DNA from: an uncultured delta proteobacterium
GTDB taxonomy: Bacteria; Desulfobacterota; Binatia; UBA9968
Direction of reading: 5' to 3'
Assembly (NCBI GenBank): GCA_963737905.1
Contig: CAVTUQ010000005.1
Span: forward strand, 114,742 to 178,741
DNA length: 64,000 bases
The position numbers and the translations under genes were made by a program. Below are positions 10,249-27,959 of this stretch, one piece after another (within the stretch, counting starts at the first letter, position 1; every line of letters begins with the position of its first letter). The notes beneath the pieces are model-generated. The model was not told where the DNA came from and did not search any database. It saw only the letters and a list, made by a program, of their open reading frames with translations.

Positions 10249-10338
10249 TTATTTCTCCTCTAAAAATAGCCGTCCCTTTAGCGCGAGGATGGTTTCGTTT
10301 GGCGACTCCTGAGACTCAAAACCAACAAGTCGCTCCTG

Positions 10339-11663: not shown

Positions 11664-11741
11664 CGAGTCCTCCCATAGAACGAGTCATCAGAGCTGGGTT
11701 GTTACCCGGCCCTAACCAATATTAGGAGAGTGATTCGATAA

Positions 11742-12125
11742 CTAGTAGAGAAGTGTGTCTTTAGGAGGCGCTCTCTGGAAAAAAAGGAAGGCAGTGAATA
11801 AATCGACCCACTGTCTTGTCTGTGGGCGAAATGATTCTAATTGCGCTTCAACGAAAGGCAGTTCAACCAGTGCGGCCTGGCCTAGATGGCAGCTCTGGGC
11901 GACGGATTGAATTGCGCAGTCGGTTTGAGCGGGCTTGGTTGGGTTCTGACCATGTTCGTGGCTTTCTGGATCAACTTGAGTTTCATCGTGTGCGTGGCCA
12001 AGCCCCTCAAAAAAATGATGCACCCGATGTGGCTGGGAAACACTCAGGAAGAGCAAAAACAGCGACCCTATGGCAAGGGCAGTGCAACGACGCAACGCCG
12101 AAACTCTTTCAGGCGATTTCTTCAT
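11742..12125 (-). CDS. DUF2946-like His-rich leader protein with C-terminal RAPP motif
   Basis: TM/signal segment, HRVHH...HAHD...HEH, C-x8-C-H, FQRAPP six codons before the stop. Confidence 0.7.
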   Translation of the reverse strand: MKKSPERVSALRRCTALAIGSLFLLFLSVSQPHRVHHFFEGLGHAHDETQVDPESHEHGQNPTKPAQTDCAIQSVAQSCHLGQAALVELPFVEAQLESFRPQTRQWVDLFTAFLFFQRAPPKDTLLY

Positions 12126-12162
12126 CGGTTGCTTAGGCTTTTATCCGAATTCGTTCGCCGGA

Positions 12163-13005
12163 TCAACCTGAAAAGCGCGGCGATCGTGTACGTTGTTGCC
12201 GGCGAAACCAGAACACGATCTCAAGAACAAAGAATAGAGCCGCGGCGGTCAATACGATGGTAGCGGCCGAAGATATGTCCAGATAGAAACTCAAATACAT
12301 TCCGGTTGCACCGCATACGATCCCGATGAGAGGAGAAAGAATCAACAGCCGTTGAAATCGATTGGTTAGGTAACGGGCAATGACCGGAGGGATCACCATG
12401 GCGGCGGCGACCAAGGTGACGCCGAGAATTTGGGTCGAGGCCAATACCGTGACCGCAAGCAGGGTAATGAAAATCAGATCGATTTTGCCGGTGGAGACAC
12501 CGTAGGCAGAAGCAACTTCCGGATCGAAGGTGGCGAACAGTAGTTGCCGGCGCATGATAATAAGCGCACAGAAAACGATTAGAGATATGACGATGACGAT
12601 CCAGAGATCCTTTTGAGTGATGCCGAGGATGTTGCCGAAGAGCGCGACCTCGATGTTGCGGGTAAAGCTCCGATAGGTCGAGACGATGGCTACGCCGAGG
12701 GCAAAACTGGAAGTCGTAACGACACCGATGGCGGCATCGGCCCCGACCCAGCGCCGGTGGCTGATCAGGTGGATGAGAAAACCGGCAAATAGCGCCCACA
12801 GCCCGGCGCCAACAAAGAAATTGACGTTCATCACGTAGCTCAGGACAGCGCCGCCGAAGATGGCGTGGGAGAGGCCATGGCCTATGTAGCTCATCCGGCG
12901 CAGAACGACGTAGACGCCGATAAAGCCGCAAAGCGCGCCGACGACGACGGCGGCTAGAAAGCCGTTGCGAAAAAATTCGTATTCAAATGGGACTAACAAG
13001 GACAT
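12163..13005 (-). CDS. Metal ABC transporter permease (ZnuB/MntB family)
   Basis: GVYVVLRRMSYIGHGLSHA; DAAIG; LFGNILG; TFDPEVA. Confidence 0.92.
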   Translation of the reverse strand: MSLLVPFEYEFFRNGFLAAVVVGALCGFIGVYVVLRRMSYIGHGLSHAIFGGAVLSYVMNVNFFVGAGLWALFAGFLIHLISHRRWVGADAAIGVVTTSSFALGVAIVSTYRSFTRNIEVALFGNILGITQKDLWIVIVISLIVFCALIIMRRQLLFATFDPEVASAYGVSTGKIDLIFITLLAVTVLASTQILGVTLVAAAMVIPPVIARYLTNRFQRLLILSPLIGIVCGATGMYLSFYLDISSAATIVLTAAALFFVLEIVFWFRRQQRTRSPRFSG

Positions 13006-13007
13006 GA

Positions 13008-13089
13008 GTTCAAATCGTTCAAAATGTTCAAGCCGTTCAATCCGTGTTTGGACGTTTTGAACTTTTTGAACGGCTGGAACGATTTGAAC
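13008..13089. repeat. Inverted pair of 9-bp-period arrays
   Basis: GTTCAA at 13008, 13017, 13026, 13035; TTGAAC-like at 13048, 13057, 13066, 13075, 13084. Confidence 0.85.
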
Positions 13090-13099
13090 GCGTCTTCAT

Positions 13100-13963
13100 T
13101 TATGTGTGCGGCGCGTGGGGTCGCTCGCCGATCATGACCATGCCGTCGTGGTGGAAGACGACCATTTCGCCTCGGTAGGTTTCCTTGAGGACGGAGGCGT
13201 TGAGTACTTCTTGAGGACGTCCTTCGGCAATCAACCGGCGATTGAGGCAGGCAACCCACGGCAGATGCGCTGCCACCCAGTTGAGATCGTGGGCGGTAAT
13301 AATGATGGCCACTCCTTGATGGTTGATCTCGTGAAGAAAATGGATCACGTCGTCCCGCGAACGAATATCGAGTCCTGCGGTTGGCTCATCGAGCAGGATC
13401 AATTCCGGATCGCCCAGCAGCGCGCGCCCAAGAAAAACCGCTTGTTGTTGGCCGCCGGAAAGCTCGCGGATATGACGATCACCGAGACCGCTCAAGTTTA
13501 AGCGTGCTATGATGTCCTGGAGCTTGCGCCGCTCGTCGTCGCGGATGCCGCGAAACCAGCGGTTCTTGCCAAAAAATCCCATGGAGATGACTTCCTCCAC
13601 GGTGATCGGGAAATTCCAGTCGATGGTTTCAAGCTGGGGCACGTAACCGATACGTTCCAACAAAGATCGTTGCGGGTCTTTGCCTCGCAGCAATACCTTG
13701 CCCTGTTGCACCGGTACCGTGCCGAGAATAGTGCGCAACAACGTCGTTTTCCCTCCGCCGTTGGGCCCGACGATAGCCAGGAACTGACCGGGCCAGATCT
13801 TGAGGGAAACATCTTGGAGCGCGGGGGTGGGTCCATAACTGTTACTGACGTTGCCAAGCTCGACGAGCGGTACACCGGAGAGGCCGGAGACCGGCGGTTC
13901 CTCAATTCCGTGGGGATGGAGACTGCCGCGGGCGTTCCCATGTGGATGATCGTGTGTGTTCAT
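13100..13963 (-). CDS. Metal ABC transporter ATPase (ZnuC/MntA family), His-rich N-terminus
   Basis: GPNGGGKT, LSGGQQQ, LLDEPT, AHDL. Confidence 0.92.
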   Translation of the reverse strand: MNTHDHPHGNARGSLHPHGIEEPPVSGLSGVPLVELGNVSNSYGPTPALQDVSLKIWPGQFLAIVGPNGGGKTTLLRTILGTVPVQQGKVLLRGKDPQRSLLERIGYVPQLETIDWNFPITVEEVISMGFFGKNRWFRGIRDDERRKLQDIIARLNLSGLGDRHIRELSGGQQQAVFLGRALLGDPELILLDEPTAGLDIRSRDDVIHFLHEINHQGVAIIITAHDLNWVAAHLPWVACLNRRLIAEGRPQEVLNASVLKETYRGEMVVFHHDGMVMIGERPHAPHT

Positions 13964-13982
13964 ATGTAGTTAAAGGTCTAGT

Positions 13983-14141
13983 CTAGCAGGTTGCTGAAAC
14001 ACTCTGATTGCAGGCTGCTCAAAAGGACCTCAGATGCGAGGCGCATGAAGGATGGATGAGCGGAGGCGTACTCTTCTGTACGTTGACGCGAAATCGGTCG
14101 AGTGCAACAAAGCATATGGGTCTTTTTCAGCAGCCTGCTAG
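13983..14141. mobile_element. Non-autonomous MITE-like element with CTAG flanks
   Basis: CTAG-CAGGTTGCTGAAA ... TTTTTCAGCAGCCTG-CTAG; extra internal end copy CAGGCTGCTCAAAA at 14011; no transposase. Confidence 0.7.
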
Positions 14142-15155
14142 TCTCTTCTCCGGTAGTCGGCATAAGCCCCCGCCACCGGCGCGGGATCGACCTGCCTCAA
14201 CGCCTCCGTTGAGCCTCCCAACGCTTCGACCATGATTGTCATATTGTCAACCATCATGCCAGGATAGGAATGCTGGGGATCGCCGGGTTTGCCGGGCAGC
14301 TCATCGTCCCTGAGCTTGTCAATATAGCGGCTTTTTGCTTCCCGGGCGATCTGTTCCAACACCGGGCTGGGAAAAACTTCCGACCCAAACACCGCCGGGA
14401 CCTTTTCCTTTCTAATTTGCTCGATGAGCCGCACCACCTCGCGGGGGCTCGGATCGGTAAAATCGGACGGTTGGACGGCGCCGATCACTTGGAAACCATA
14501 GCGGCGCGCGAAATAGGGCCAGGAATCGTGATAGGTGAGCAAGCGACGATTGTTTTGCGGTATTGTTTGAACCGCTTCCTTGATCGCTTGATCCAGGGCT
14601 TCGAGTTTTTTGAGAAATTGCGCGGTGTTTTGTTCGTAGACTGCTTTGTTCTTGGGGTCGAGACGAATCAGCTCGTCGCGGACCAACGTCGCATAACGCA
14701 TCACGTATTCGGGATTGAGCCACAAGTGAGGATTGGGATGACCCTGTTCCTTGGGAAAGCTAAAGTCATAGATATATTCGGTTTCTTTAACGGTCTTGTT
14801 GCCGAGAGAATAGATGGAGCGCTCCTGTTTTGAGATTGGCTTGGGCGAGATTCACGGTGGGTGTTTCGAGATCGAGGCCATTGATAATGATCAAATCAGC
14901 ACGGGAGAGAAGCTTGCTATCCGACGGAATGGGCTCGAAAGTATGCGAATTGATCCCTTCAGGGATGATGCCGGTCAGCTGAATTCTGTCACCGCCGATG
15001 TTTTCCACGATGCTCGTGATCGGTGCGACGGTGGTGACGACGCTGAGTTTCTTCTCCGCCGTGGCGTCCGGCTTTTGTTCCTGGCGTCCACAGGCAGCAA
15101 GAAGAAATGCGGCGGCCAAAATAACCGACCGTGTTGTGACGGTTGCAAATTTCAT
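14138..15155 (-). CDS. Metal ABC substrate-binding lipoprotein (ZnuA/MntC family), split by a +1 frameshift near 14820
   Basis: LAAC lipobox, NSHTFEP, then in the shifted frame YDFSFPKEQGHPNPHLW, TYHDSW, FGSE; removing one C joins the two ORFs. Confidence 0.85.
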
Positions 15156-15338
15156 TTGGTAAAAGGCGCGTGCTTTTTCTTTTCGTCCAGACGGAAGTTG
15201 CCCAACGTCACGAAGGCCTGAGGGCTAGCCTATTGGCAAAAATCTAATTCCTGGGTAGGGAGGAGAGGAAGTCGCTCTTTCCGTACTCGGGTTACCAACG
15301 AATTGGCGGCCTAACAAGTTTCAGTCTGGGCGACCCCG

Positions 15339-15377
15339 ACCTTATCAGGAGTAATATGAATTGACAAATCGTGCTAC
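15339..15377 (-). promoter_or_regulatory. Sigma70-type promoter overlapped by a candidate NikR operator
   Basis: Minus strand TTGTCA-17-TAAGGT; operator GTAGCAC-N13-ATATTAC (15351-15377) straddles the -35. Confidence 0.6.
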
Positions 15378-15493
15378 ACGCGGCTGCGGCGCTTCCTTAT
15401 GTAAAGTTATGTAAAGTAAAGATTTATCCAAGAATGAGCTTAATCTAGGGGAATGCTCCGGTTTAGCAGCGCAGCGTCTGCCGCGACAGATGA

Positions 15494-16609
15494 TTACAGG
15501 GCAAGACCGCGTCTTTGTCGCGTCGTCTGCACGTGAGCCACTGACGCATCGACAACGTAAGGCACAGCAGATTCGGGATACGGCGCAACACTGCTAACGT
15601 TGATTTCGCAAAGAGCATAGGTGTCTTCGCCGTTGTTTCCCTTCGGACCGAGCAGGAAATCGCAATCCCAGAGAATCGGAAGACTTTCGGTCTCAATTTC
15701 CAACAATCGCTGCACTGCCGGCACCCACTCGTGCTCGAGCTTGCGTTTAAGGGTCTGGAATTCCGGCATGGACGGCGGATGATACAAACGGGGCCCGGGT
15801 GGGGGCGCTTCCGTTGCAGGTGCGCCTAGGCGCGCGGGAAACAGTGCATTGATAGCCTGATGTCCAAATCCGACTACCCTGTCATCCACGAGATAACACC
15901 GAATCATGCCCTCCGGAAGCCGCTTTTGATATTCTTGATCGATCATCAGGCCGTTGGAGGAAAAGTAAGGCTCACAGCGGCGATAGAATTCGCCCAGCGT
16001 GATTTGCTCTTCGTTGCAACCACGCTGGGCGTGTCGGACACAAACGATGGTTTCAGGCTCCGGCAGCACAGCGAGGCTGCGGCCTTCGCTGTTCGCAAAG
16101 GCCTCTACCGGCAGCTGGACTTTCCACACACCGTTTCCGCCATTGCCGCGATTCTGCTTGAGTACTCGCGCCTTGCCAGCTGCTAGTCGCAAAGGGAGCT
16201 CCTGAACCATTTGAGCCATACTGCAGTAAAGATGCGTGTCGCAGCCCCATCCAATGTCACGCGTGCGATACAGAACTTCTTTTGTACCCAACTTCAAAAT
16301 GACGTCGGGGTGCGTGCTCACAAAAACGCCAGTGGCTGCGACATCACGAAGCATAGAATCGAGAACGGACCTGTCCCTTCCGCCTTCGATCGGATTGACC
16401 CATACCAGCACGCCGTCAACCCGCATGAGCTGTTCTCGAACGTCCTCGCAAAAGTCATCGTGATATATCGCAGGCTCGACGTAAATGCGCTTGGCGGCGA
16501 AGGCCCCGAACAAATCTGAGAATCGGCTATTCTCGGCGGTTGTATTCCTTCTCGCCTCACGATTGCCAGAGCAAAGAATTGCCACTCGCGCGTAACTATC
16601 TTGTTCCAT
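15494..16609 (-). CDS. Cj0069-family (ATP-grasp-like) protein
   Basis: VLVWVNP, HPDVILKLGTKEVL, VLKQNRGNGGNGVW, WDCDF, CEINVSSV. Confidence 0.75.
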   Translation of the reverse strand: MEQDSYARVAILCSGNREARRNTTAENSRFSDLFGAFAAKRIYVEPAIYHDDFCEDVREQLMRVDGVLVWVNPIEGGRDRSVLDSMLRDVAATGVFVSTHPDVILKLGTKEVLYRTRDIGWGCDTHLYCSMAQMVQELPLRLAAGKARVLKQNRGNGGNGVWKVQLPVEAFANSEGRSLAVLPEPETIVCVRHAQRGCNEEQITLGEFYRRCEPYFSSNGLMIDQEYQKRLPEGMIRCYLVDDRVVGFGHQAINALFPARLGAPATEAPPPGPRLYHPPSMPEFQTLKRKLEHEWVPAVQRLLEIETESLPILWDCDFLLGPKGNNGEDTYALCEINVSSVAPYPESAVPYVVDASVAHVQTTRQRRGLAL

Positions 16610-16762
16610 CGAAAATTCTATTTTTCTGGAATCGCTGTCTCGTCTCCGTAACCACAAAACAGAGTCGCCAGGGAAAGCGGATAAAAGTTAATTGGCTTAT
16701 TTCCTGTGACGCGTCAGAAAGTAGAGTAAGTGCCAGACAAAAATATTGTCGAAACTTTTTCA

Positions 16763-17734
16763 CTAGCTTTTTCTTCTGAAGTACTCATAAAGGTCGTTGA
16801 AAACCGCGCACCCTCGCTCCAAGCGGGCCTCGTCATCTTTGTGAGTCATTGCGATGCCGGCGATGAGCCTCTCGATCCCAATCGTGTCCGGCCGCCCGAA
16901 CTTCGAATCCTTGAGATCGATGTCGTGAACAATCTCAGCGATCGGGATAAGCGCCGAGTCATCGAGACATACACGCTGAATCAAGACCTCCAGTGTGCAG
17001 CGATCACCTTCATGCGTGAACTCTGCCTCGAACATGTCGAAGCGTAGCTCACCGGGCAGAGGCTTGTAGCCTTTCGGAGGAACAAACTTGAAGCGAGCAT
17101 CCGGATCGATAAAACGACGAATAAGCCAGGCGCTTGCCATGCGGTCGACGTAAATGCCCTTACGGGTAACCCAGGTTTTACCGAGGAAGTCTTCCCGCCG
17201 GAACCTGCGAGCATTGTCGGATCCAAACATCGAATTCTTACCAGTCATGCGTGCCTCAACCCCGGAAACCAATCCCTCTGCTACCTCCCGTCCGGGAGCG
17301 CCAAAAAAGTCTATGGCGACAACCTCAGCGAGGCGCCGTTTAAGTCGGGTGAGATCGATCTCCAGTTGTGTACTTGGTGTTTCCTCCGTTTGTCTCGACA
17401 AATGACTCGCCGCAAGACGGCGAGTCTCCTCAGCTATCTTGTCGTACTCAGCGCCGCGGGCCGCTTGGAACAAAGTTTCCACTTGCTCGTCGGAAAGACC
17501 CTCGACGAAGCGCGCCTCACATAAGGACGCTTCTCCGCGACCTTCAACAATTTCCCGCAACACCCACTGAAAATCCTCCTGCGTCTCGTCGTTCTTGGGC
17601 AGGACATACACCGAGTTCTTAATGGCAACAGCGCCAATACGCTGAAGCCGTCGCCCAATCTTTACCCGGAAGTAATCTGGCTTCGGCGGGATTTGATGAA
17701 TAAGGAGTAACCATCGTCCTTCTGACTCCTGCAT
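16763..17734 (-). CDS. chrB: Chromate resistance regulator ChrB
   Basis: WLLLIHQIPPKP..RV; IDFFGAPG; WVTR..IYVDRMASAWLIRRFIDPDA; FTHEGDRCT. Confidence 0.92.
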   Translation of the reverse strand: MQESEGRWLLLIHQIPPKPDYFRVKIGRRLQRIGAVAIKNSVYVLPKNDETQEDFQWVLREIVEGRGEASLCEARFVEGLSDEQVETLFQAARGAEYDKIAEETRRLAASHLSRQTEETPSTQLEIDLTRLKRRLAEVVAIDFFGAPGREVAEGLVSGVEARMTGKNSMFGSDNARRFRREDFLGKTWVTRKGIYVDRMASAWLIRRFIDPDARFKFVPPKGYKPLPGELRFDMFEAEFTHEGDRCTLEVLIQRVCLDDSALIPIAEIVHDIDLKDSKFGRPDTIGIERLIAGIAMTHKDDEARLERGCAVFNDLYEYFRRKS

Positions 17735-17830
17735 ACGCCCTTCCTTTGACTTAAAAGTACAACTGTTATATTCAAGATTCAACTGCGCTATTTAAAACTA
17801 CTTGTGAACGCCCTGTGAAGGGAACCACAG

Positions 17831-19046
17831 ATGAAATCTCCACGTCCTGAAATGACCGAAATCATGGCGCCAGCCGCGATTGGTCTATGGTCACTCGTTG
17901 GCTATTTCCTGAAGCTCGGCACGATCGGCTTCGGCGGTCCGGCGGCGCTGGTCGGTTTCATGCACAGAGACCTGGTCGAGCAGCGCCGTTGGATCACTGA
18001 GGATACTTACAAACTATCCCTAGCGCTCGCTCAGATCATGCCGGGACCACTCGCAGCACAAACGGCCATCGCCATTGGTTACTTCGAGGGCGGGGTTCTC
18101 GGTGCGACCCTCGTCGGTCTCGGTTTCATTGTTCCTTCTTTTCTGATGGTGGTCGCCATCTCGCTAGCTTATGTCGCCTACGGCGGGTTGTGGTGGATGC
18201 AAGCACTTTTCTACACCATCGGCGCAACGGTTATCGCAATCATCGCGATTGCTGCGTACAAGCTGGCGCGCGGCACCAACAAGCGTAATCCGCTGCTCTG
18301 GGGCATCTTTGTTTGCCTCACGATCGTAACCGTATGGTCGCAGAGCGAGTTGGCAGAGTTCTTCATTCCTGCCGGACTCATCGTCCTGGTTTTTCAGGCT
18401 TGGCCAGGTTGGAACCCCGGCATCCTAATGACACTCAGTGCCGCGGTCCTCGGTGTGGCCGTTTGGTTGCTGGAGGTGTGGCTCGCGCAGGCCGGTACAG
18501 GAGGCAACACTGGCAACATATTGACTGAGATCCTCTTATTCTTTACCAAGGCTGGCGCGTTTGTGTTCGGCAGCGGCCTGGCAATCATTCCGTTCTTGCA
18601 CCAGGAGTTGTACAGCATTCGGCTGGCTGAATGAGCATCAGTTTTTGGACGCCGTCGCCGTCGCGATGATCACTCCCGGGCCCGTGGTCATAACCGTCGC
18701 TCTAATCGGGTTTCTTGTTGCCGGCCTGGCGGGAGCGGTTATGGCATCAATTGGTATCTTCTTGCCGGTATATGTATTTACGATCGTGCCAGCACCGTGG
18801 TTCAAACGCCACCGCGACAATCCCCAGTTTAAAGCGTTCGTTGACGGCGCTACCGCAGCTGCGACCGGCGCAATTACAGGCGCAGTGATTGTCTTAGGCG
18901 CACGAGCAATCACCGATTTGCTCACTGCAATTATCGCGCTCGTCAGCTTGGGTGTTTTATGGCGCTATAAGATTTCGGAACCGATTATCGTCACCATCTC
19001 CGGACTGGTCGGATTGATACTCTGGCCCCTGGTCCGTGGAGGGTGA
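17831..19046 (+). CDS. chrA: Chromate efflux transporter ChrA (long chain), frameshifted near 18610-18620
   Basis: GFGGPAAL, PGPLAAQ, VFGSGLAI, then FLDAVAVAMITPGP in another frame. Confidence 0.88.
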
Positions 19047-19140
19047 TGACCAACTCGATCTTGATGAGACTCGACGAACGGATATAACGGATGTACTGGA
19101 GAATCTCCGACCGGCTCCGTCGCGACTTTGGCCCGGGGTG

Positions 19141-19752
19141 TTATTTCTTGAAGCCGCCGAAGAGCGCCCGGGTTTCGCCTGTCCAGAAGCGTTGCACGTC
19201 CTGAAAACCGGCGTCCCTTAGCCACTTAAATTGATCTTCCAAAGGTGGTCGCTCACGGTCGAAATTGATGAAACAACCGCCACTCTTGACCAGGGGAAAG
19301 ATATCTCCATAGATGCGCTCGATGATTTTTGGGCTACGGACGTTATGGATCGCGATGGCAGAGACAACCGCTTCGAAGGGACCGGTGAGCTTTTGGCTCC
19401 AGCCGGGCTTGGAAAAATCGCAGAGGACGTAGTCAAAGCGTCCTTTGAGGTGCTGCATGCGCTCTTGCCCGAGCTTTTCCATCTGCTCGGACCCGTCCTG
19501 GCAGACAGCGGTAGCGTTTGAAAAATGACCTAGGAGGAATTGGGTCAGGGCGCCGTACCCGGCGCCGACATCAAGAATTCTAATGGGGGAATTCTTGTCG
19601 TAGGGGATCGTTTCCGCCAGCACGCGGAAGGGTTCCTGTCGGGCGGTCTCTTTTTGGTCCTGTCCCGATGCCCAATCGGAAACATAGTTGGGAGAATCCC
19701 AATCGTGATGATCGTGACGGTGCTCATGTGAGGAGTGCGATGTGGTAGCCAT
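19141..19752 (-). CDS. Class I SAM-dependent methyltransferase with His-rich N-terminus
   Basis: ILDVGAGYG motif I; N-terminus SHSSHEHRHDHHD. Confidence 0.85.
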   Translation of the reverse strand: MATTSHSSHEHRHDHHDWDSPNYVSDWASGQDQKETARQEPFRVLAETIPYDKNSPIRILDVGAGYGALTQFLLGHFSNATAVCQDGSEQMEKLGQERMQHLKGRFDYVLCDFSKPGWSQKLTGPFEAVVSAIAIHNVRSPKIIERIYGDIFPLVKSGGCFINFDRERPPLEDQFKWLRDAGFQDVQRFWTGETRALFGGFKK

Positions 19753-19814
19753 ATGAAATCCGCCTTTCTTTGCTGTTTAGAGATTATCAAACATTGTATT
19801 GCCTGTCATTCCCC

Positions 19815-20648
19815 CTATTTCTGCAACCGGAAACGATAGATATAAGTAAATTCCGCCGGGACATTCTTACCGTCTCTTTGGGCCGGCTCGAAGCGGGATA
19901 GTTTCACTGCTTTCAGCGCTTCTTCATCGAAACCGGGGCCGCCGCTCTTGGTGATTTCCGCCTTTGTAACTTTTCCTTCAGTGTCGATCTCGATTCTCAA
20001 AGTAACGTCGCCTTCCATACCCATGCGCAAAGCTATTGGAGGATAGACCGCCCGGACAGTTTGTACTGGTTTGGCTTCGCGGTTGGTTCTCAGGGGCGTC
20101 GTCGGCGCCGGAAGGCCGGGAGCACCCGACCCTCTGCCCAAACCAGAGCTAGCGGTGCCTCCGCCGCCACCGGACGTCCCCGAGCCCGGCACAACGGCTA
20201 CGTCGCCTTTGCCGAAAAGATTTCCGGCGCCGGCTTCGCTGCCGCCGCCTTCGACTCGCGCGGTAGGGGCCAATTCGGGAGTGGGTTCAGGTTTAGTTGT
20301 TTCTGCGGGTTTTGTTTCGACGGGCTTGACCGGCTCCTCTTTGGGCGGAGCAGCCGGCGGTGGTGTCGGTTTGGGTTGGATAATTTCCCTTTTGGCCAAC
20401 GGCTTTGGCTCTTTGGTTTTTTCGACTTTCGGAGGTGGAGGCAGCGGCTTTTTGATCTCGGGAGGCGTCTCTATTTTTTGGATCGGTTTGGGTTGTTCCT
20501 GGCGCGGCACGTCGACAAGACTGATGGGCAGGAAATCTTGACGGCGCAAATTGACAGTGTGCTTTAAGATGATGGACGCCAGGACAATCACTGCGCCGTG
20601 AATGAAGCAGGAGGCGATTAAAGATAAGCTCAGCGAGTCATCTCTCAC
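19815..20648 (-). CDS. tonB: TonB energy transducer
   Basis: N-terminal TM with SxxxH, Pro/Lys-rich linker, YPPIALRMGMEGDV...FEPA C-terminal domain. Confidence 0.92.
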   Translation of the reverse strand: MRDDSLSLSLIASCFIHGAVIVLASIILKHTVNLRRQDFLPISLVDVPRQEQPKPIQKIETPPEIKKPLPPPPKVEKTKEPKPLAKREIIQPKPTPPPAAPPKEEPVKPVETKPAETTKPEPTPELAPTARVEGGGSEAGAGNLFGKGDVAVVPGSGTSGGGGGTASSGLGRGSGAPGLPAPTTPLRTNREAKPVQTVRAVYPPIALRMGMEGDVTLRIEIDTEGKVTKAEITKSGGPGFDEEALKAVKLSRFEPAQRDGKNVPAEFTYIYRFRLQK

Positions 20649-21058
20649 TGGCGGAGGTCCTTGGGTTTCACGGCGATGGCCATCTTAGCGACGCCCGCCT
20701 GGCGAGCATCGTCCATCACATCGACCACCCGTCCGTGCTCGACCCGCTCATCTGCGTTGATCAGTATGAGTAGATCGGGATTCACTGCAAGCCGCTGTTG
20801 GAGTACGGTGCGGATGCTTTCGCGCGGGACTTCCTGCTTATCGATGAAGACCTTGCCGTCCGGAGTGATGGTGACGGCGGCGCTTTCACTGGCGGGCTGT
20901 TGTCCCGTGGCGGCCTTCGGCAGGTTGACCGGTAGCCCGCTGTAGCGGGCCATCGATAAGGTCGAGATCATGAAAAAGACCAGCAGGAAAAAGATCGTGT
21001 CGATCATCGGAATGATCTCGATGCGGGCCTTCTTGATGGTTCTGCGCGAAAGCCGCAT
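20645..21058 (-). CDS. exbD: Biopolymer transport protein ExbD
   Basis: IIPMIDTIFFLLVFFM; VNLPKA; INAD..V.HG.VV.VMD. Confidence 0.92.
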   Translation of the reverse strand: MRLSRRTIKKARIEIIPMIDTIFFLLVFFMISTLSMARYSGLPVNLPKAATGQQPASESAAVTITPDGKVFIDKQEVPRESIRTVLQQRLAVNPDLLILINADERVEHGRVVDVMDDARQAGVAKMAIAVKPKDLRQ

Positions 21059-21666
21059 TAGCTTTTCCCCTCCTGTTCGGCCAGCAACAGCTCCAGGCGC
21101 GAGCCGTAATACTCAATCTCTTCGAGCTCCCGTTCTGCACGGTTCGTGAAATAGTTGTACGGAACGAGGGTGAGAATAGCGATCAAAAGCCCCGCGGCGG
21201 TGGCGATCAGGGCCTCGGCTACACCGCCGGTGACCGCATGGGGCTGCCCGAGGCCGGCCTCCGACATGATGCCGAAAGAACTGATCATGCCGGTGATGGT
21301 TCCCAGTAACCCCAAAAGGGGTGCCAGAGTGATAATGGTGTCGAGAATGGTCAGGCGCTTTTTCAAAACCGGGATCTCGGCCTGGGCCGCTACTTCTAGG
21401 GCTTTGGCAAGCGAAGGGTTTCGGTGTTCGAGACCGGCGGTTAAGACTCGGGCGGCGGGCAAATCGACCCTCTGGCCCAGTTCGGTGGCTTTGGCAAACT
21501 CCCGTTGTTCCACCAGTTGCAGCAGCTCTTCTACCGGCTGCCGGGAGCGCGTTTTGCGCCAAAAGATGAATCGCTCGATAACAACGGCCAAAGAAATGAT
21601 CGAGCAGGCCAACAGCGGGACCATGACCGGCCCGCCCTTGATGATGATCCCAATAAAATCAAACAC
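21058..21666 (-). CDS. exbB: MotA/TolQ/ExbB proton channel
   Basis: APLLGLLGTITGMI; GVAEALIATAAGL. Confidence 0.92.
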   Translation of the reverse strand: MFDFIGIIIKGGPVMVPLLACSIISLAVVIERFIFWRKTRSRQPVEELLQLVEQREFAKATELGQRVDLPAARVLTAGLEHRNPSLAKALEVAAQAEIPVLKKRLTILDTIITLAPLLGLLGTITGMISSFGIMSEAGLGQPHAVTGGVAEALIATAAGLLIAILTLVPYNYFTNRAERELEEIEYYGSRLELLLAEQEGKS

Positions 21667-21778
21667 GGTGGTTGCTCTTTCTCAAATATACCATGGGTAG
21701 TTCGTTCATTTATTAACCGATGCAGCCACATTGCAGGGTTTCACAGGATCGGCTCCCAATTGAAATTTTAGCGCGCCG

Positions 21779-22535
21779 CTATTCCACGGGAAAAACCAAG
21801 ACCGCTTTGAGCACGTGGAGATCATAGTCCGTCTCTGCCACCGTCATTCTTCTCTCAACACGAACCAACCATGCGCCGGGATGGGTAATCTTTACCCGAG
21901 CGATGCCGTCGCGTGACTCAGTCGCGTAGGCGTAAGTGTTGTAGTACCGGCTGAAGCCGTCATAGGTGGCAAAAACATTGGCCTGCAGTGGGTTACTGTC
22001 AAAAAGAATCCTGAAAACCAGTTCGTCTCCAACTCGCGCTGCGGTGGGATCGGTGGTAGGGACGATTTCCAACCGATGGCCCAGAACTTTCTCATAATTT
22101 CTATCGGAAGCTTCCACAACAATCAAAGTCTTGGAGAACTTCTCAAACCTTGCCCTTTGCGGCTTGGCCGTATCCTGTGCTGCCAAGGTTTCAATCGGCT
22201 CCAACAAATGGCCGGCAATTACAGCCGTGCCTTTAGTGTGGACGGCCGCCGTTCCATCTAAGGTTTGCAGAATATTATTTTCTTTCGGCGGCAGATCCAC
22301 TGATTTATTGCCTTCAAGCAACGATGCTTTGACGGTGTTGGCGGGAAGTAACTCTTCTCCGCTCATGAAAACGTGGGTCGAAAGAACGCTCCAAAGGCAC
22401 TTTATCACGGGCATTAACGCGCAACGACGCCGGTTTGATGATGAATTCGTGGGCATGAACGGTTGAAATCAACGACCACGTTCCCATTGCAAGTAGCAGC
22501 AGCACTACCGCAAGCAGCTTGGTTAATCCTTTCAT
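21779..22535 (-). CDS. DUF4198-family periplasmic protein, frameshifted near 22392
   Basis: Signal peptide plus HAHEFII in ORF 22314..22535 continues as STHVFMSGEE...EKFSKT...GHRLEIVP in ORF 21779..22456. Confidence 0.75.
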
Positions 22536-22550
22536 TGATTTTCTCCGTGC

Positions 22551-24575
22551 TTACCAGACGTGAATCGTGACTCCAGCCTTCGCCGTAAACGGGTCGCCGG
22601 GAGTGAAGTTAGAGCCGAGCACTCCCTCCGGTGGCTCATCTCGCAGTCGCGATACGAACGCGTGTTCCGCGCTGCGCCATTTTGTGTTGGCCAGATTTTG
22701 GAACACGACGAAGAACTCATAGCGCTGCCAAATGTATTTTAGAAACAGATCAAAGATTGCGGACTGAGGCACTGTGATGGTGCGGTCTTCGATCGCATAG
22801 CGGGTGCCGATGTAGCGCATTTGAAGTCTCGCCTGGAGGCCCGAATCATGGCGGGCCGTCAAGCCGGTGAAGGCGAGGGCGCGCGGCGCCAGCGGCACTG
22901 CGTCGCCGTTGAGAAATCTTGCCCAGGTGTAGGAGGCGTCGATGTCATAAGTTAACCAGGGCAGGATGTCGTAGCGGAATTCGGCTTCCAGGCCGTGACG
23001 CCGGCTTGCTCCTTGGGGCTCGAAAGTTCCCGTGTCGCCTTCAAACACCAACTCGCTCGATAGATAGGATCTCCAATAGGCGGCGCTGAATTCCATTTTT
23101 TCCAACAATCGTGTCCTCATGCCGAGCTCGCCACCCCAGAAACGGGCCAGCGGCCTGGTGGAATCTTGAACGATTACACGGGCATCGTTGCTATGGAAAC
23201 CGCCGCCGAGGTTCACAAACAAGTTCGTCCTTTGAGCGAATTGATTGTCGGTGAATGGACTGAAAATCAAGTTCAATTTTGGACTGGCGATGGATCCGGA
23301 AGCGGTGCCGGCGATGGGTTGGGTTGCCGGTCCGGCCTGGCTCACGCCCCACCAGAAGTTGTCTAGTCGAGCGCCGAGCTGACCTCGAAACCAATTAGTC
23401 GGCCGGATTTCCTGCTGGGCAAACCAGCTCAAGTTGGTTATCTGAATGTCGTTGTCGTTGGTAGTGCTCAGCCGGTGGCGCTTCTCCTGATTGAAGAGGC
23501 CGACCGTGATGCGATCGAACCGGCTCTGAAAGCCAAGAAGCGTTTCTGTGGGTATATCCCCAAACAAATAGTTACGCCGGTATGTGACGTTGTTACCGGC
23601 AAGAAAACGCTTGTCATCCTGCTCGATGCCGTCACCCTGGACCGGGTTGTTGAGAAACAAGGTGAAGTTTGACCACAGCTGGAGCCGGTACCACGACATC
23701 CAGGTTTGAGCCCTCAGAGATTGATTGGCGTCGGCAAAGTTGTAGATGAGGCTCAAGTTTTGCCTCGCGGAATTTCCTCCCTCGCTTGAGTCTTCGGAGC
23801 CAAAACGGCCGAGAGTTCCGTCTCTAACCGCGCGGGAAGGAATCTCGCCGGAGGCATTCCAGTTGGTTGAGAAGTAAGTGGCAAGGAAATCCAACGTCGA
23901 TCGCGCGTTGGAAATGATGTTGAAATTGCTGAAGAAATTATAGCGGTTATATTCGCTCGGATTCTTGAACGGACCATCGCTATGGTAATACTCAAACGCC
24001 ATATAAGGCCTCAAAGAGGTCCCTTCAGGGGCCGAGAGGATACCGAGAAACCGCGCGGTCTCATAGCTGCCGCCCATCACGGTGGCAGTCGAATCTTTGT
24101 CGAAGCGTTTCGTGACGATGTTGATAGCGCCCGACGTGGCGAAATCTCCGAGATGAGGGAAATATGAACCCTTGTAGATTTCCACCCGGTCGATCATTTC
24201 AGGAATCAGCCAGTGCAGGTCAGCGTATCCCTGGCCATGGGCATTGCTGGGCATGTTGACCGGAATACCGTCGACGCTAACCTGGAAGTCGGTTCCGTGA
24301 TCGGAATCGAAACCGCGGAAAAGGATCTGATCCGCTTTTCCACCTCCGTGGTGCTGGCTGATGGTCAGGCCCGGCACCAGCCGCATGACGTCGCTGGGTG
24401 TGTTGGAAGGTCGAAGCTCCAAATCCTTTGACCACCGAGTTTGCTCCGTTGCTGCCGATGTCGGCAGCTCGCCCCACGTGTAAACCTCAATCGGATCGGC
24501 TTCGCCGCCGTTGGCGACCAGCGCCCGCGCCAAAAAAACAACAATTGCCAAGATGAGGATAGATAAGAGGCGCAT
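22551..24575 (-). CDS. TonB-dependent receptor, probable Ni/Co-type
   Basis: Plug QHHGGGKADQILFRGFDSDHGTD...HGQGYADL; C-terminal aromatic W; GGAGGT SD before MRLLS; lies next to nikR. Confidence 0.88.
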   Translation of the reverse strand: MRLLSILILAIVVFLARALVANGGEADPIEVYTWGELPTSAATEQTRWSKDLELRPSNTPSDVMRLVPGLTISQHHGGGKADQILFRGFDSDHGTDFQVSVDGIPVNMPSNAHGQGYADLHWLIPEMIDRVEIYKGSYFPHLGDFATSGAINIVTKRFDKDSTATVMGGSYETARFLGILSAPEGTSLRPYMAFEYYHSDGPFKNPSEYNRYNFFSNFNIISNARSTLDFLATYFSTNWNASGEIPSRAVRDGTLGRFGSEDSSEGGNSARQNLSLIYNFADANQSLRAQTWMSWYRLQLWSNFTLFLNNPVQGDGIEQDDKRFLAGNNVTYRRNYLFGDIPTETLLGFQSRFDRITVGLFNQEKRHRLSTTNDNDIQITNLSWFAQQEIRPTNWFRGQLGARLDNFWWGVSQAGPATQPIAGTASGSIASPKLNLIFSPFTDNQFAQRTNLFVNLGGGFHSNDARVIVQDSTRPLARFWGGELGMRTRLLEKMEFSAAYWRSYLSSELVFEGDTGTFEPQGASRRHGLEAEFRYDILPWLTYDIDASYTWARFLNGDAVPLAPRALAFTGLTARHDSGLQARLQMRYIGTRYAIEDRTITVPQSAIFDLFLKYIWQRYEFFVVFQNLANTKWRSAEHAFVSRLRDEPPEGVLGSNFTPGDPFTAKAGVTIHVW

Positions 24576-24588
24576 GTTACCTCCCGGA

Positions 24589-24615
24589 GTAGTACGTATT
24601 TTCATTCCGTAATAT
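24589..24615. promoter_or_regulatory. Candidate NikR operator at the TBDR promoter
   Basis: GTAGTAC-N13-GTAATAT, just inside a minus-strand TTGACT (24620-24625). Confidence 0.6.
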
Positions 24616-24735
24616 CCCAAGTCAAAAAATTTTTGCTGCGATTCTGCGAGCCGGTTGACCGAGTGTGGTTGTGGTAAAGGCCTTGTGCTGGTGATCATGT
24701 TCATGAACCTGGTCTGTTCGCGGATCCGCGAGACT

Positions 24736-24762
24736 ATGTTATCAATCCCATTTTCGTGCTAT
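24736..24762. promoter_or_regulatory. Second candidate NikR operator upstream of the TBDR
   Basis: ATGTTAT-N13-GTGCTAT (minus strand ATAGCAC-N13-ATAACAT). Confidence 0.55.
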
Positions 24763-24778
24763 TCAACCCCAAAAAATT

Positions 24779-25195
24779 TTAGTTCTCTATTTCGGGGGTA
24801 GTCGTTACCAGCTTGCCATTCTGGACCCCCTTGGTGGCGATCAGTTTGCCGGCGATCTCGTGCACTTTGTCGCCGCGCCCCCGGATGACGATGACCTCAA
24901 GACAATTGTGCTCGTCCAAATGAATGTGCAGGCTGGCATTGACGGCCACATGAGCCTTATGCTGCATGTCCGCCAAGAGATCGCTCAGGTGATGCACCCG
25001 ATGGTCATAGACGAGAGTGACAACGCCGATGACTTCGGTATCTGCCAGTCCTATCTTCTTTTGAATGAGGTGGTCGCGAATGAGATCTCGGATGGCTTCC
25101 GACCGGTTTTGATAGCCTTGACCGCCGATGCTTCTGTCAAACGCTTGCAGCAGATCATCTTCGAGCGACACGCCGAATCTGGAAAGGTGGTGCAT
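24779..25195 (-). CDS. nikR: Nickel-responsive regulator NikR
   Basis: RFGVSL...NRSEAIRDLIR ribbon-helix-helix; YDH; QH...HIHLDEHNCLE Ni-binding ligands. Confidence 0.95.
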   Translation of the reverse strand: MHHLSRFGVSLEDDLLQAFDRSIGGQGYQNRSEAIRDLIRDHLIQKKIGLADTEVIGVVTLVYDHRVHHLSDLLADMQHKAHVAVNASLHIHLDEHNCLEVIVIRGRGDKVHEIAGKLIATKGVQNGKLVTTTPEIEN

Positions 25196-25218
25196 AGTCC
25201 GCCTCAGGCAAATGTTGC

Positions 25219-25245
25219 GTAGCACGAACTTTAATGCCGTGTCAA
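25219..25245 (-). promoter_or_regulatory. nikR promoter with candidate autoregulatory operator
   Basis: GTAGCAC-N13-GTGTCAA; the second half-site contains the minus-strand TTGACA -35. Confidence 0.55.
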
Positions 25246-25322
25246 ACCACGATTTCTGTCCAATTTTACTAACTAATCCCGAGGGAGGAGAACTTTATAT
25301 TGTAGCTGCGGTGCGCGGGGTA

Positions 25323-26450
25323 CTAATCCGGCCAGCGCAGTAAGGTGATGAACTGGAGTGCACCCGGACTGCCTGTTTTCGCTGTGTCGTTGTCGTAAAC
25401 CAAGGCCAGGCGGGCTCTCCGCACCTGGCTGCCACTGGAAGCAGCCTCTTCGGAAAGGACACACACGCCCTCCGCCTTACCATCATGGCCGAAAAGCCAG
25501 ACCTTCTGAGGCTCGACGAGTCGTAGATCGCCAAGCTTTATCCTATCGGGTGGCACCTGAGCGGGACGGGACGTCGAGATTTTCTCGTCGGACAGAAACC
25601 ATAGTGTGTTGCCATGATAACGGTTGGTCCTATCCTCAGTGGACGTGAGAATGAAAAAGCCATTCCACGCGGGCATGTAGTCGATAGACGACAATCCTGA
25701 GAGGTTTCCTTGGCGTTCACCCGCATTGAATCTGAAGAGGGGGCTCAATGCGAGCTTGGCGTTTGGGAGGGGTAATTGGGTGATATCAGCGGCGTAAACA
25801 CGGATAGGATTATGCGGCTCCCGCAGGCCGACGACCAGTTCACGTAGTGTTAGCTGCCCCGCGTTGTCGCGCAACGTTCGCACTGTCAGCCCTTCTATAT
25901 TCACTTCGTTTTTCCTAGGATCACGGTGGTATCCTTCCGCCGCCAACGCGTCTCCTATATCCCATTCAATGATCGATTCTGAGTCAATGACGAATGGTTT
26001 TTCGCCCGCGCCATCGCTTCGCAAACGGAAACGCAACAAACGCGGAACGGCCATAGGTCTCTTTTGGGCTCCCTCTTCAGTCGGCTGCTCAACGAAACGT
26101 GAGCCAATGACGTAGTAAGCTCCTTCATCGTCGTGTGCCAGGTCCTCCCACTTGGGCCTATTGTCAAAGACGCCCACGCTAAATGACTGCTTGATCCGTC
26201 CGGTGGCCGCTTCGACTACGCTGAGACATGCGTTTTTATCGCAGGCCACTAGAAGCATACTGCCATCCCCAATCGTCGCCACTCCCGATGGCTCAATTTT
26301 TTTATCTTCCTTCCCCGTATCAGCGGTTAAGAAAGGGATCGGAAGTTGTGCAATCTCGACTTGTACCTCCTGTGCTCTCACGGCGAGAGTCGGATGCAGT
26401 AGAACCAACCCAAGAAACGTCACACACGCCGCCGGCAGAAGTCGCCACAT
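25323..26450 (-). CDS. Exported beta-propeller-like protein (DUF3616-like)
   Basis: Signal peptide; EPSG, WEDLA, YVIGS, NIEGL, VGLREP, KAEGV repeats. Confidence 0.6.
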   Translation of the reverse strand: MWRLLPAACVTFLGLVLLHPTLAVRAQEVQVEIAQLPIPFLTADTGKEDKKIEPSGVATIGDGSMLLVACDKNACLSVVEAATGRIKQSFSVGVFDNRPKWEDLAHDDEGAYYVIGSRFVEQPTEEGAQKRPMAVPRLLRFRLRSDGAGEKPFVIDSESIIEWDIGDALAAEGYHRDPRKNEVNIEGLTVRTLRDNAGQLTLRELVVGLREPHNPIRVYAADITQLPLPNAKLALSPLFRFNAGERQGNLSGLSSIDYMPAWNGFFILTSTEDRTNRYHGNTLWFLSDEKISTSRPAQVPPDRIKLGDLRLVEPQKVWLFGHDGKAEGVCVLSEEAASSGSQVRRARLALVYDNDTAKTGSPGALQFITLLRWPD

Positions 26451-26754
26451 TTTCTTGTCCTTTCTCGCAGGCCATTTGGGAACCGAATATCGCCGGTCGC
26501 CTTTTTTGGTTGTATCGACCTTGGATCCTTACATAAAGTGTTTCGACCCATTAAGCGAGAGCGATCATGAGTTTTTGCATGCATTTTGCGGTCAATTCGA
26601 TGCCACTTTCACGTTTTGAGCGTGTGTGAGAATGGCTATTGGAATTAATTTCGTTTGAACGGACAAGTGTAAAATCAACGTCTCTTCTTCACAGTGAGAA
26701 CGATGTCGTTCACCGGGGGTTTGTGCTTGACCCGAGGGCTTAGTACATGATAGC

Positions 26755-26767
26755 TGACATAATGTCA
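26755..26767. promoter_or_regulatory. Palindrome, candidate operator of the mod regulator
   Basis: TGACAT-A-ATGTCA, 7 nt before the ATG; TTGACC at 26727. Confidence 0.5.
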
Positions 26768-26774
26768 AATATAG

Positions 26775-27959
26775 ATGGAGTCAGTGAACCAAGAAAATCC
26801 AATCGAAACTGAAAACAGGGTGCGAGAAAAGCGCCAAACGCTGCACCTTTCGCAAAAGCAACTAGCCGAACTGGCGGGGATCACGCGTCAAGCGATTTGC
26901 GCAGTCGAGGCCAATCAATACTCGCCTTCGACTTCGGTGGCTTTGAAGCTTGCTCAGGTATTGCGCTGCAGAGTCGAGGATCTCTTTTATCTGAAAAGCA
27001 ATGGCGAGGTCGTGGAAGGGGAGCTGATCGGCCCTCTACCGAAAGGTTTCAACAAGGTCCGTGCCCAGGTCAGTCGAGTAGGGGCGCGGATACTGGTTCG
27101 TCCTCTGGTCGGTCTGGGAGAGCTTGCCACGCTTTCGACAACCGCCGACGGTCTGATTCTCGAACCTGGATCCGACGCCCAACACGTGAAGGTTCAGCTC
27201 CTTGAAAATCGTCAGGCTCTGAGCCGCAACATTGTTATCGCAGGATGTGACCCGGCAATGTTTCTTGCGTCCGAACACCTCAAACAGCGAACCGAGGATA
27301 ATCTAGTGCCTTGTCTCATGGGGAGCAGCTCCGCAATTGGCGCGCTGAAACGAGGCGAGGTGCACGTCGCCGGGGTTCACTTGATCGATGAGCGTTCGGG
27401 AGCCTGGAACCTTCCCTATCTGGACCGTAATCTCAACGGGATGGATTGCCTGGTTGTTACCTTTGCTCATTGGGAAGAGGGATTGATTGTCAGACAAGGA
27501 AATCCCAAGAAGATACGCGGCGTTCAGGATTTGGCTCGTCGAGGGATAACAATCGTCAACCGGGAAAACGGCTCCGGAGCGCGTCGCCTGCTCGATCGTC
27601 AACTGGAAAGCTGTGGAATAGAGCCGGCCAAGGTCAAAGGGTATGACAAGGAGGTTCTCTCACACCTGGAGGTTGCCGCGCGAGTCAAAGCCAGTTTGGC
27701 GGACGCCGGGTTCGGGATAGAAGCGGCAGCCTCGATCTGCGGTCTTGATTTCGTCGCTTTGCAGCGTGAGCGTTACGACTTGGTTATTCCCAAAGCCCAT
27801 TACGACCTTTTGCCAGGTTTGAGAAGGCTCCTCGATATGATAGTCAGCAAAAATTTCCGGGATGAGCTGGATGGACTAGGCGGATACGATACGCGCGAGA
27901 TCGGCAAAGTCGTGGAACGAGCAATTAGCAAAGCAGTGCGAAACAATCCAGGAAGCTAG
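26775..27959 (+). CDS. XRE-HTH plus PBP (molybdate-binding) domain transcriptional regulator
   Basis: SQKQLAELAGITRQAI...YSPS HTH; GCDPA, GSS.A...GEVHVAGVHL, NRENGSGAR, ERYDL, LGGYD. Confidence 0.85.
   Translation: MESVNQENPIETENRVREKRQTLHLSQKQLAELAGITRQAICAVEANQYSPSTSVALKLAQVLRCRVEDLFYLKSNGEVVEGELIGPLPKGFNKVRAQVSRVGARILVRPLVGLGELATLSTTADGLILEPGSDAQHVKVQLLENRQALSRNIVIAGCDPAMFLASEHLKQRTEDNLVPCLMGSSSAIGALKRGEVHVAGVHLIDERSGAWNLPYLDRNLNGMDCLVVTFAHWEEGLIVRQGNPKKIRGVQDLARRGITIVNRENGSGARRLLDRQLESCGIEPAKVKGYDKEVLSHLEVAARVKASLADAGFGIEAAASICGLDFVALQRERYDLVIPKAHYDLLPGLRRLLDMIVSKNFRDELDGLGGYDTREIGKVVERAISKAVRNNPGS

Follow-up and report, generated by a model that had tools for sequence, protein, structure and literature searches.

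Predicted NikR operators at the locus

The 64,000-nt window of contig CAVTUQ010000005.1, to which all coordinates below refer, comes from a metagenome-assembled genome of Candidatus Binatia, an uncultured soil bacterium, and carries on its minus strand a gene for the nickel-responsive regulator NikR (24779-25195). It is followed by genes for a TonB-dependent outer-membrane receptor (TBDR), a DUF4198 protein, ExbB, ExbD, TonB and a methyltransferase and, beyond an inserted block, by genes for a ZnuA-type ATP-binding cassette (ABC) importer and for CopC, DUF4198 and CopD proteins. A first-pass annotation of this DNA had pointed to four copies of a 7-13-7 motif as operators tying NikR to two operons, one of which looks zinc- or copper-specific by family. 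When the sequence was re-read, all four proved exact in letters and coordinates, and the spacing of exactly 13 nt between the 7-nt halves was borne out in each (named S1 to S4).

The predicted operator at the nikR promoter, S4 (25219-25245), reads GTAGCAC-N13-GTGTCAA on the plus strand and TTGACAC-N13-GTGCTAC in the gene direction (minus), and lies 24-50 nt upstream of the nikR ATG. S3 (24736-24762, minus, ATAGCAC-N13-ATAACAT) is a predicted operator just past the nikR stop codon. S2 (24589-24615; GTAGTAC-N13-GTAATAT on the plus strand, ATATTAC-N13-GTACTAC in the gene direction, minus) is predicted to lie over the putative TBDR promoter, and in the gene direction it ends 13 nt before the TBDR ATG. 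Both S3 and S2 fall inside the 202-bp spacer between nikR and the TBDR gene. S1 (15351-15377, minus, GTAGCAC-N13-ATATTAC), the predicted operator of the ABC/CopCD operon, is found 196-222 nt upstream of the ZnuA-type gene. The sites are thus placed as the annotation had them.

The 8-mer RTAGYACG shared by the sites has 238 copies in the genome (2.27 per 64 kb) and 11 in the window, and by itself is too common to carry the case. The seven further copies in the window all lack a second half-site; two of these additional copies (55065, 55486) fall within an rRNA operon. This operon is complete (53822-59341) and consists of the 16S gene (53822-55379), two tRNA genes (55584-55657 and 55850-55922), the 23S gene (56090-59094) and the 5S gene (59226-59341).

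A NikR box of delta-proteobacteria with half-sites 13 nt apart, which the first-pass annotation had brought up, is in print as GTGTTAC-[N13/14]-GTAACAC, and Rodionov et al. (2004) give the reversed form GTAACAC-N13-GTGTTAC for Desulfotalea (PMC545781, for which parts of the text were available). Based on those parts, the published box and the sites described here have in common two 7-nt halves, a 13-nt spacer, a GTnnnAC core, a position adjoining nikR and before nickel transporter genes, and the occurrence of both half-site orientations. The targets named in the same parts are importers of the Nik(MN)QO type, not TBDR or ZnuA-type systems. The sites also differ from the reversed consensus, with which they agree at 7, 9, 11 and 11 of 14 positions, the deviations being G or T at half-site position 4 and A for G at position 1. 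When the better orientation was chosen by eye for each site, agreement with the published consensus was 11/14 for S1, 11/14 for S4, 10/14 for S2 and 8/14 for S3, and the core letters T2, A6 and C7 are retained in most halves. In spacing and half-sites the four are compatible with the published box, and they are predicted to be NikR operators of the GTnnnAC-N13-GTnnnAC type known from delta-proteobacteria.

The regulator and its sites in relatives

The product of nikR (138 aa) contains the Pfam domains RHH_1 (residues 6-44) and NikR_C (residues 56-132) and passes the cut-off of the NCBIfam NikR equivalog NF003381 (180.4 bits, cut-off 105). Its best match in the PDB is 2bj1, the NikR of P. horikoshii (E 1.7e-35). 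MQH and LHIHLDEHNCLEV of the protein align column for column with LQH and LHVHMDEHNCLEV of 2bj1; the His, HxH and Cys of the aligned stretch are presumably the residues of the high-affinity nickel site. Judged by its sequence, the regulator is a true NikR. That a protein of this fold senses something other than nickel, the regulon then answering a different signal, is very improbable in view of the cut-off passed and of the HxH-x5-C stretch, which aligns with solved nickel-binding NikRs.

A nikR match was found in 22 of 41 genomes of relatives (G006 gave a nikR fragment match only), and 20 nikR loci were taken for comparison. A site TTGACAC-N13-GTGTTAC, 38-54 nt before the nikR start codon, was matched as a pattern in 15 of the 20 loci and missed in L011, L016 and L018-L020. 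A second site, GTARCAC-GAATTT...-RTAnnAC, was matched in 19 of 20 loci 18-31 nt past the stop codon, behind a TAAATTTTTTT tract; in L010 its halves are 12 nt apart. S4 and S3 are the counterparts, in the genome under study, of these pre- and post-nikR sites, respectively. The alignment with the relatives also refines S4, the half GTGTCAA being the conserved half TTGACAC of the relatives (gene direction; -35-like) and GTGCTAC their conserved half GTGTTAC. Most relatives have one box only between nikR and the next gene, and in L009 and L012 this single box abuts the ribosome-binding site, as S2 does.

In L016-L020 (family f2) the post-nikR box is a near-direct repeat, GTAACAC-N13-ATAACAC (6/7 positions), and not an inverted repeat. 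This arrangement is odd for a symmetric NikR tetramer; T2, A6 and C7 alone are constant in all halves.

The gene that follows nikR and its box varies among the relatives, and encodes a TBDR, a His-rich major facilitator superfamily (MFS) transporter, a NicO-like protein or a ZnuA-type substrate-binding protein (SBP). The product has a His-rich start in L002-L004 (Pfam MFS_1 for L002, the one that was scanned) and a conserved N-terminal motif in most of L006, L008, L010, L011 and L014. The NicO-like match in L013 scored 23.5 bits, below the cut-off of 27.7.

Genome-wide search for NikR boxes

A 29-nt matrix was trained on 32 nikR-flanking sites of relatives, the genome under study being excluded. 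From one relative, G012 (= L004), come 2 of the 32 sites used for training as well as one of the 20 nikR loci; it is also among the 17 genomes counted below for co-occurrence, and its two site sequences recur in the public record behind L041. With this matrix both strands of the genome were scanned (6,715,063 bases, 13.4 million positions), a check that the first-pass annotation had proposed. S1 scored 32.1 bits and ranked first of all positions, with a matrix that had never included it, and S4 ranked second (29.5 bits). S3 (18.0 bits) ranked seventh among distinct places and S2 (16.6/15.9 bits) ninth.

Three second-order Markov genomes of the same size as the real one served as the null. Their maxima were 22.1, 17.7 and 18.8 bits. 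Matches of at least 18 bits numbered 1, 0 and 1 in the simulated genomes versus 8 in the real one, and matches of at least 16 bits numbered 4, 2 and 2 versus 11. The full 7-13-7 site is therefore far beyond background frequency, S1 and S4 standing 7-10 bits above the best simulated match. That all four sites are chance matches without function would fit the abundance of the 8-mer, and is already contradicted by these scores and by conservation in the relatives; we give this explanation almost no credence.

S2 and S3 are marginal on the genome-wide score, yet both lie within the nikR-TBDR spacer. S3 is preceded by AAAATTTTTT and S2 by AAAAATTTTTT; a tract of A4-5 T6 occurs 8-9 nt upstream of each, and the centres of the two sites are 147 bp apart, or about 14 helical turns. 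The shared A/T tracts suggest that the post-nikR segment was duplicated locally, and a spacing of this kind might permit looping. An alternative is that function is confined to S1, S4 and perhaps S3, and that S2, and S3 too if it is not functional, would be decayed sites or chance look-alikes that arose by the duplication which the tracts suggest. Scores such as those of S2 and S3 were reached 0-4 times per simulated genome, which also counts against an operator function of this pair, and the single post-nikR box of most relatives points the same way. Against the look-alike explanation, S3 is found exactly at the position of the post-nikR box, S2 abuts the ribosome-binding site in the manner of L009 and L012, and a chance match of such score in a given 200-bp spacer is expected about once in 10,000 (an estimate from the simulated counts). 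This alternative is considered unlikely, and all four sites are retained as predicted NikR operators.

Other high matrix matches (C38:138350, C2:227522, C8:134693, C7:431330, C27:125545 and C28:149438) were set aside. None has a nickel link; they are located inside open reading frames (ORFs) or beside NMT1-like SBPs, an ABC exporter or a haem peroxidase.

Linkage of the ABC operon to nikR

Eighty SBP loci were examined and divided by SBP identity into 42 close loci (at least 73%) and 38 more distant ones (55-68%, with another gene order). Among the close loci, 26 have nikR upstream on the same strand, 12 show a TBDR, tonB or methyltransferase gene up to the end of the flank, and 4 are without upstream flank; nikR was found in none of the 38 distant loci. 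The layout which recurs in Binatia is [box] nikR [box] TBDR (DUF4198) exbB exbD tonB methyltransferase SBP ATPase permease ... CopC DUF4198 CopC CopD, with all genes co-directional. In L044, L049 and L055-L061 nikR and a box stand directly before the SBP gene, and six loci (L015-L020) have the SBP gene as the first one behind nikR and its box.

A box of at least 18 bits within 330 nt of the SBP start was found in 10 of 37 close loci and in 0 of 38 distant ones (distant maximum 6.4 bits; the 99.9th percentile of 2000 random control windows was 11.0 bits), and in 27 of the 37 there was no box directly before the SBP gene. Since many of the nikR-adjacent boxes in these loci were among the training sequences, the matrix is no independent test of them. 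Independent weight comes from the synteny together with the predicted boxes that are not beside nikR, namely those of the genome under study and of L021, L026, L028 and L037.

Among the 41 relatives, this SBP clade occurs in 18 genomes; nikR accompanies it in 17 of them, in 16 cases on the same contig within 11 kb. Conversely, the clade occurs in 1 of the 19 genomes without nikR (G024, 83% complete). In a quick tree the 42 close SBPs were on one side of a branch (SH-aLRT, the approximate likelihood ratio test, 93), separated from a clade of Binatia paralogues (support 99); the group had been chosen by identity rank, which makes this result partly circular. The paralogous clade (about 65% identical) has neither nikR nor box.

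In three Dehalococcoidia loci (L085, L087 and L090), words resembling GTTGCAAT/GTTGCGAC (TTGCAAT...TTGCAA) occur 67-93 nt upstream of the distant SBP gene. These words possibly mark where another metal regulator binds.

The TBDR operon

The first operon comprises nikR and, after it, the TBDR gene (22551-24575, minus), whose 674-aa product has the Pfam domains Plug and TonB_dep_Rec_b-barrel and matched no NCBIfam equivalog at or above its cut-off. It is followed on the same strand by a gene for a periplasmic DUF4198 protein (21779-22535), which is in two frames in the assembly: the Pfam domain DUF4198 was matched on 21779-22456, and the signal peptide and the mature N-terminus HEFIIKP are in the other frame (about 22457-22535). 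Downstream are exbB (21058-21666, minus; Pfam MotA_ExbB), exbD (20645-21058, minus; Pfam ExbD) and tonB (19815-20648, minus; Pfam TonB_C). The last gene (19141-19752, minus) encodes an S-adenosylmethionine methyltransferase (Pfam Methyltransf_25/12/11) with a His-rich N-terminus (MATTSHSSHEHRHDHHD). Synteny shows most Binatia loci to retain this gene, with tonB on one side of it and the SBP gene on the other.

In Helicobacter pylori the genes of the NikR regulon include those for the TonB-dependent receptors FrpB4 and FecA3 and exbB-exbD-tonB. The predicted regulon described here resembles that of H. pylori, a subject of PMC3177205 and PMC5385501, in placing nikR itself, a receptor of the outer membrane and the TonB complex that energises it under the nickel-responsive NikR. 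It differs in operator sequence, and the H. pylori regulon is not known to include a ZnuA-type ABC importer or CopC/CopD genes.

A DUF4198 protein of Ideonella sakaiensis is described, in the available portion of PMC12537917, as binding nickel with a dissociation constant of 18 nM through its N-terminal His, and the neighbourhoods of genes of this type are there said to contain TonB receptors and NikR_C regulators. Another member of the family, Zcp, binds zinc (PMC12663993). Like the I. sakaiensis case, as far as that portion of PMC12537917 describes it, the locus has a DUF4198 gene beside TBDR and nikR genes and a mature protein beginning with histidine. Unlike it, the locus has a second DUF4198 copy, between two CopC genes, and metal binding by the copies found here is predicted. 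In both DUF4198 proteins histidine comes first after a signal-peptide-like stretch (HEFIIKP, HDGWVEV; cleavage judged by eye).

The ABC/CopCD operon

The second operon starts with a gene for a substrate-binding lipoprotein of the ZnuA/TroA type (cluster A-I; 14138-15155, minus), present as two ORFs (14787-15155 and 14138-14725) which both matched Pfam ZnuA. The genes for an ABC ATPase with a His-rich N-terminus (13100-13963, minus; Pfam ABC_tran) and for an ABC-3 family permease (12163-13005, minus; Pfam ABC-3, 222 bits) come next. They are followed by a gene for a His-rich protein of 127 aa (11742-12125, minus), which gave no Pfam or NCBIfam match and is syntenic in relatives, and by one for an exported protein of 314 aa (10719-11663, minus; mature N-terminus HGVIG) without a Pfam match. 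The latter is possibly an outer-membrane channel; an Atlas lead (score 0.95) points to PF13557, which 39% of the members of that Atlas cluster carry. Further downstream are genes for a CopC-domain protein (10339-10722, minus; Pfam CopC, mature N-terminus HAFP), the second DUF4198 protein (9424-10248, minus; Pfam DUF4198, mature N-terminus HDGW), another CopC-domain protein (9072-9452, minus; Pfam CopC, mature N-terminus HAYP) and a CopD-family membrane protein (7812-9065, minus; Pfam CopD). The C-terminal domain of the CopD protein resembles the product of the next gene, an exported protein of 138 aa (7378-7794, minus) with a weak match to BiPBP_C below the cut-off, whose nearest Atlas clusters are mostly from Binatota. 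In five proteins of the cluster (two DUF4198, two CopC and the 314-aa protein) the residue that follows the signal-peptide-like stretch is histidine.

The best NCBIfam names for the ABC components were those of the zinc system AztABC and the manganese system MntABC, all scores being below the equivalog cut-offs. The permease reached 178 bits for AztB (cut-off 280) and 108 for ZnuB (284), and the ATPase 186 for MntA (400), 174 for AztA (220) and 124 for ZnuC (306). The SBP scored 115 for AztC (350), and this is not a fair test, only its 195-aa C-terminal piece having been scanned. The CopD protein, at 115, was likewise below the cut-off of the CopD equivalog (195), with the Pfam domains CopC and CopD both present in the operon. 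The importer shares with the Zn/Mn/Fe importers ZnuABC, AztABC, MntABC and TroABC a ZnuA-type SBP, an ABC ATPase and an ABC-3 permease in the same gene order. It differs from them in that the only strong regulatory site found upstream, in a scan for NikR boxes, is the predicted operator S1 and not a Zur or MntR site, and in being fused into a cluster with TBDR, TonB and CopCD genes. Similarly, the CopC and CopD proteins resemble those of copper uptake or resistance in their Pfam domains and, in both CopC copies, in the mature N-terminal His. They differ in that their genes are downstream of a predicted NikR box, with no copper regulator seen nearby.

The four candidate ligand motifs of the SBP (SHTFEP, NPHLW, YHDSW and YIDKL) are alike in the nikR-linked and unlinked clades, the only difference being E versus R in SHTF[E/R]P in many unlinked paralogues. 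No sequence feature thus points specifically to nickel, and the motifs do not decide specificity. These motifs, together with the family names of the ABC components, the copper families CopC and CopD and the zinc-binding DUF4198 protein Zcp (PMC12663993), would suit an explanation in which NikR controls the operon while the importer and CopC/CopD carry Zn, Mn, Co or Cu, cross-regulation closing a promiscuous entry at nickel excess. On the other side are the sub-threshold Zn and Mn equivalog scores, the presence elsewhere in the genome of a ZnuA-ABC-ABC3 locus followed by a ZIP transporter and without a NikR box, and the grouping of the nikR-linked SBPs apart from their unlinked paralogues. Furthermore, in L015-L020 the SBP takes the place after nikR which is held elsewhere by TBDR, MFS or NicO-like transporters. 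Transport of another metal is therefore judged improbable, if less so than a regulator that senses another signal, and nickel is preferred as the predicted substrate.

The genome encodes a [NiFe]-hydrogenase large subunit and so needs nickel. A weak NicO match and a HupE-like match were also found, neither near the matrix matches listed above; CbiM and urease were not found in the assembly, which is 87% complete. In the literature searched, judged by titles and the beginnings of abstracts, the cluster A-I SBPs that were retrieved were all for Zn or Mn and no nickel-specific one was seen. A search of the same depth found no NikR-controlled ZnuA-type or CopCD system, the query combining NikR and CopD being swamped by COPD lung disease and uninformative, and a 2024 review in Chem Rev (PMC11672702) offered nothing helpful on nickel uptake; absence of such a system from print is not established.

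Interruption of the cluster and putative promoters

The two operons are separated by an inserted block (15494-19046) which, based on Pfam matches, comprises a DUF6815 gene (15494-16657, minus), chrB (16763-17782, minus) and chrA (17831-19046, plus, in two ORFs). This chrB/chrA/DUF6815 block occurs between the methyltransferase and SBP genes in the genome under study and in L021, whose SBP is 91% identical; most of the other Binatia relatives lack it there. S1 is identical in L021, where the box and the following CTCCTGATA form an invariant block of 39 nt in a region that is 75% identical overall. Contigs from runs X1 and X2 cover S1 with no differing letters.

A promoter overlapping S1 was tentatively identified by eye (15339-15367, minus), with a -35 element TTGTCA (15367-15362), a 17-nt spacer ending in TGA and a -10 element TAAGGT (15344-15339). 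NikR bound to S1 would cover the -35 element and the spacer. The nikR half-site TTGACAC contains a perfect -35 hexamer, and at S2 there is a promoter-like TTGACT-16-GAAAAT (24625-24598). Counts of promoters and terminators were at the level of shuffled sequence and neither support nor break the operon models. A search of Rfam over 7000-27000 yielded no riboswitch or leader.

A dispersed repeat (13964-14137; about 130-155 nt with terminal inverted repeats of about 20 nt) separates the SBP and ATPase genes. Across the genome, blastn matched it 31 more times, on many contigs and at identities of 73-92%. Only about 20 nt occupy its position in L021, and short-read contigs break at its edges.

A regulator gene whose product has HTH_3 and PBP_like domains (26775-27959) is oriented divergently to the nickel cluster, and the next ORFs are ABC-transporter-like by look.

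Frame changes and read support in the assembly

Intact orthologues share 72-75% identity with the SBP, whose frame changes near 14818. One DNA contig of run X1 (depth 3.4), which may be the run of the window's own sample, covers 14576-15107 and differs solely in having one base fewer at 14818, which would restore the frame. The frameshift is probably an assembly error and the SBP gene intact. Other genes are also split across frames, namely the first DUF4198 gene (22457-22535), a second ZnuA gene (G000:C2:185177-185993) and perhaps chrA (18561-18634); indel errors in the assembly are therefore likely, and apparent pseudogenes need care. The RNA-library contigs of X15 and X19, which belong to a single study, match parts of the ATPase gene and the SBP gene's 5' end at 92-99% identity. 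Start sites, strand and regulation cannot be read from contigs of this type, and RNA libraries can contain DNA.

Proposed regulation of nickel uptake

In the proposed mechanism, a nickel-bound NikR tetramer would sit on S4, which overlaps the -35-like TTGACA in the nikR promoter. S3 and S2, before the TBDR-DUF4198-exbB-exbD-tonB-methyltransferase operon, would be occupied as well, as would S1, before the genes for the ZnuA-type SBP, ATPase, ABC-3 permease, CopC, DUF4198, CopC and CopD. The result would be shut-off of a complete nickel uptake route across the cell envelope, and under nickel scarcity both operons would be transcribed. The two operons would represent halves of one ancestral Binatia cluster headed by nikR, which the insertion of chrBA/DUF6815, with chrA on the opposite strand, would have cut, the distal half having its own NikR-controlled promoter.

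Several points weigh against this explanation, in addition to the SBP motifs, the family memberships and the modest scores of S2 and S3 already given. A consensus scan reported no sigma-70 promoter at S1, the one recognised by eye being below the threshold of the scan, and the single promoter match at S2 is at chance level (0.9 such matches expected). The dispersed repeat between the SBP and ATPase genes might interrupt transcription. In the 27 of 37 close loci lacking a box before the SBP gene, control by NikR would need unproven read-through of at least about 5 kb from the head of the cluster. Finally, the relatives are kin, and counts among them overstate independence.

Taken with these points, Ni-responsive NikR operators governing both halves of a nickel uptake cluster are considered a probable explanation of the locus, held with good confidence. 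As to the claim that the operon of Zn/Cu type is repressed by nickel, its membership in the predicted NikR regulon is upheld by S1 as the best box of the genome and by the linkage to nikR across Binatia; we infer that NikR binds, that it represses and does not activate, that the genes are co-transcribed, and that the ABC importer and CopCD carry nickel. The data support a predicted NikR regulon of a known general kind, holding transporter families not tied to nickel in the literature searched. A more specific Binatia nickel route is plausible and is put forward tentatively, in which the ZnuA-type SBP and ABC-3 permease would form an inner-membrane Ni(II) importer and CopC, CopD, DUF4198 and the 314-aa protein would relay the metal from the TBDR. 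If this route is correct, the ZnuA/ABC-3 and CopC/CopD families would gain their first members dedicated to nickel, and the nikR-linked and unlinked SBP paralogues would be a natural pair for studying selectivity for Ni versus Zn/Mn.

The metal specificity of ZnuA/TroA-type SBPs and of CopC/CopD is usually assigned by family name, and here it is the regulator that says nickel: the best predicted NikR operator of a 6.7-Mb genome precedes a ZnuA-type operon, and such linkage is seen throughout a whole uncultured class. Known nickel importers are NikABCDE, Nik/CbiMNQO, NiCoT, HupE/UreJ and NiuBDE. If the proteins described here carry nickel, a new type would join them, and annotation pipelines would be mislabelling these proteins as zinc or copper systems. 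The locus would also present a case of a regulon repaired after an insertion, in which the half of the cluster severed by chromate-resistance genes has an operator of its own.

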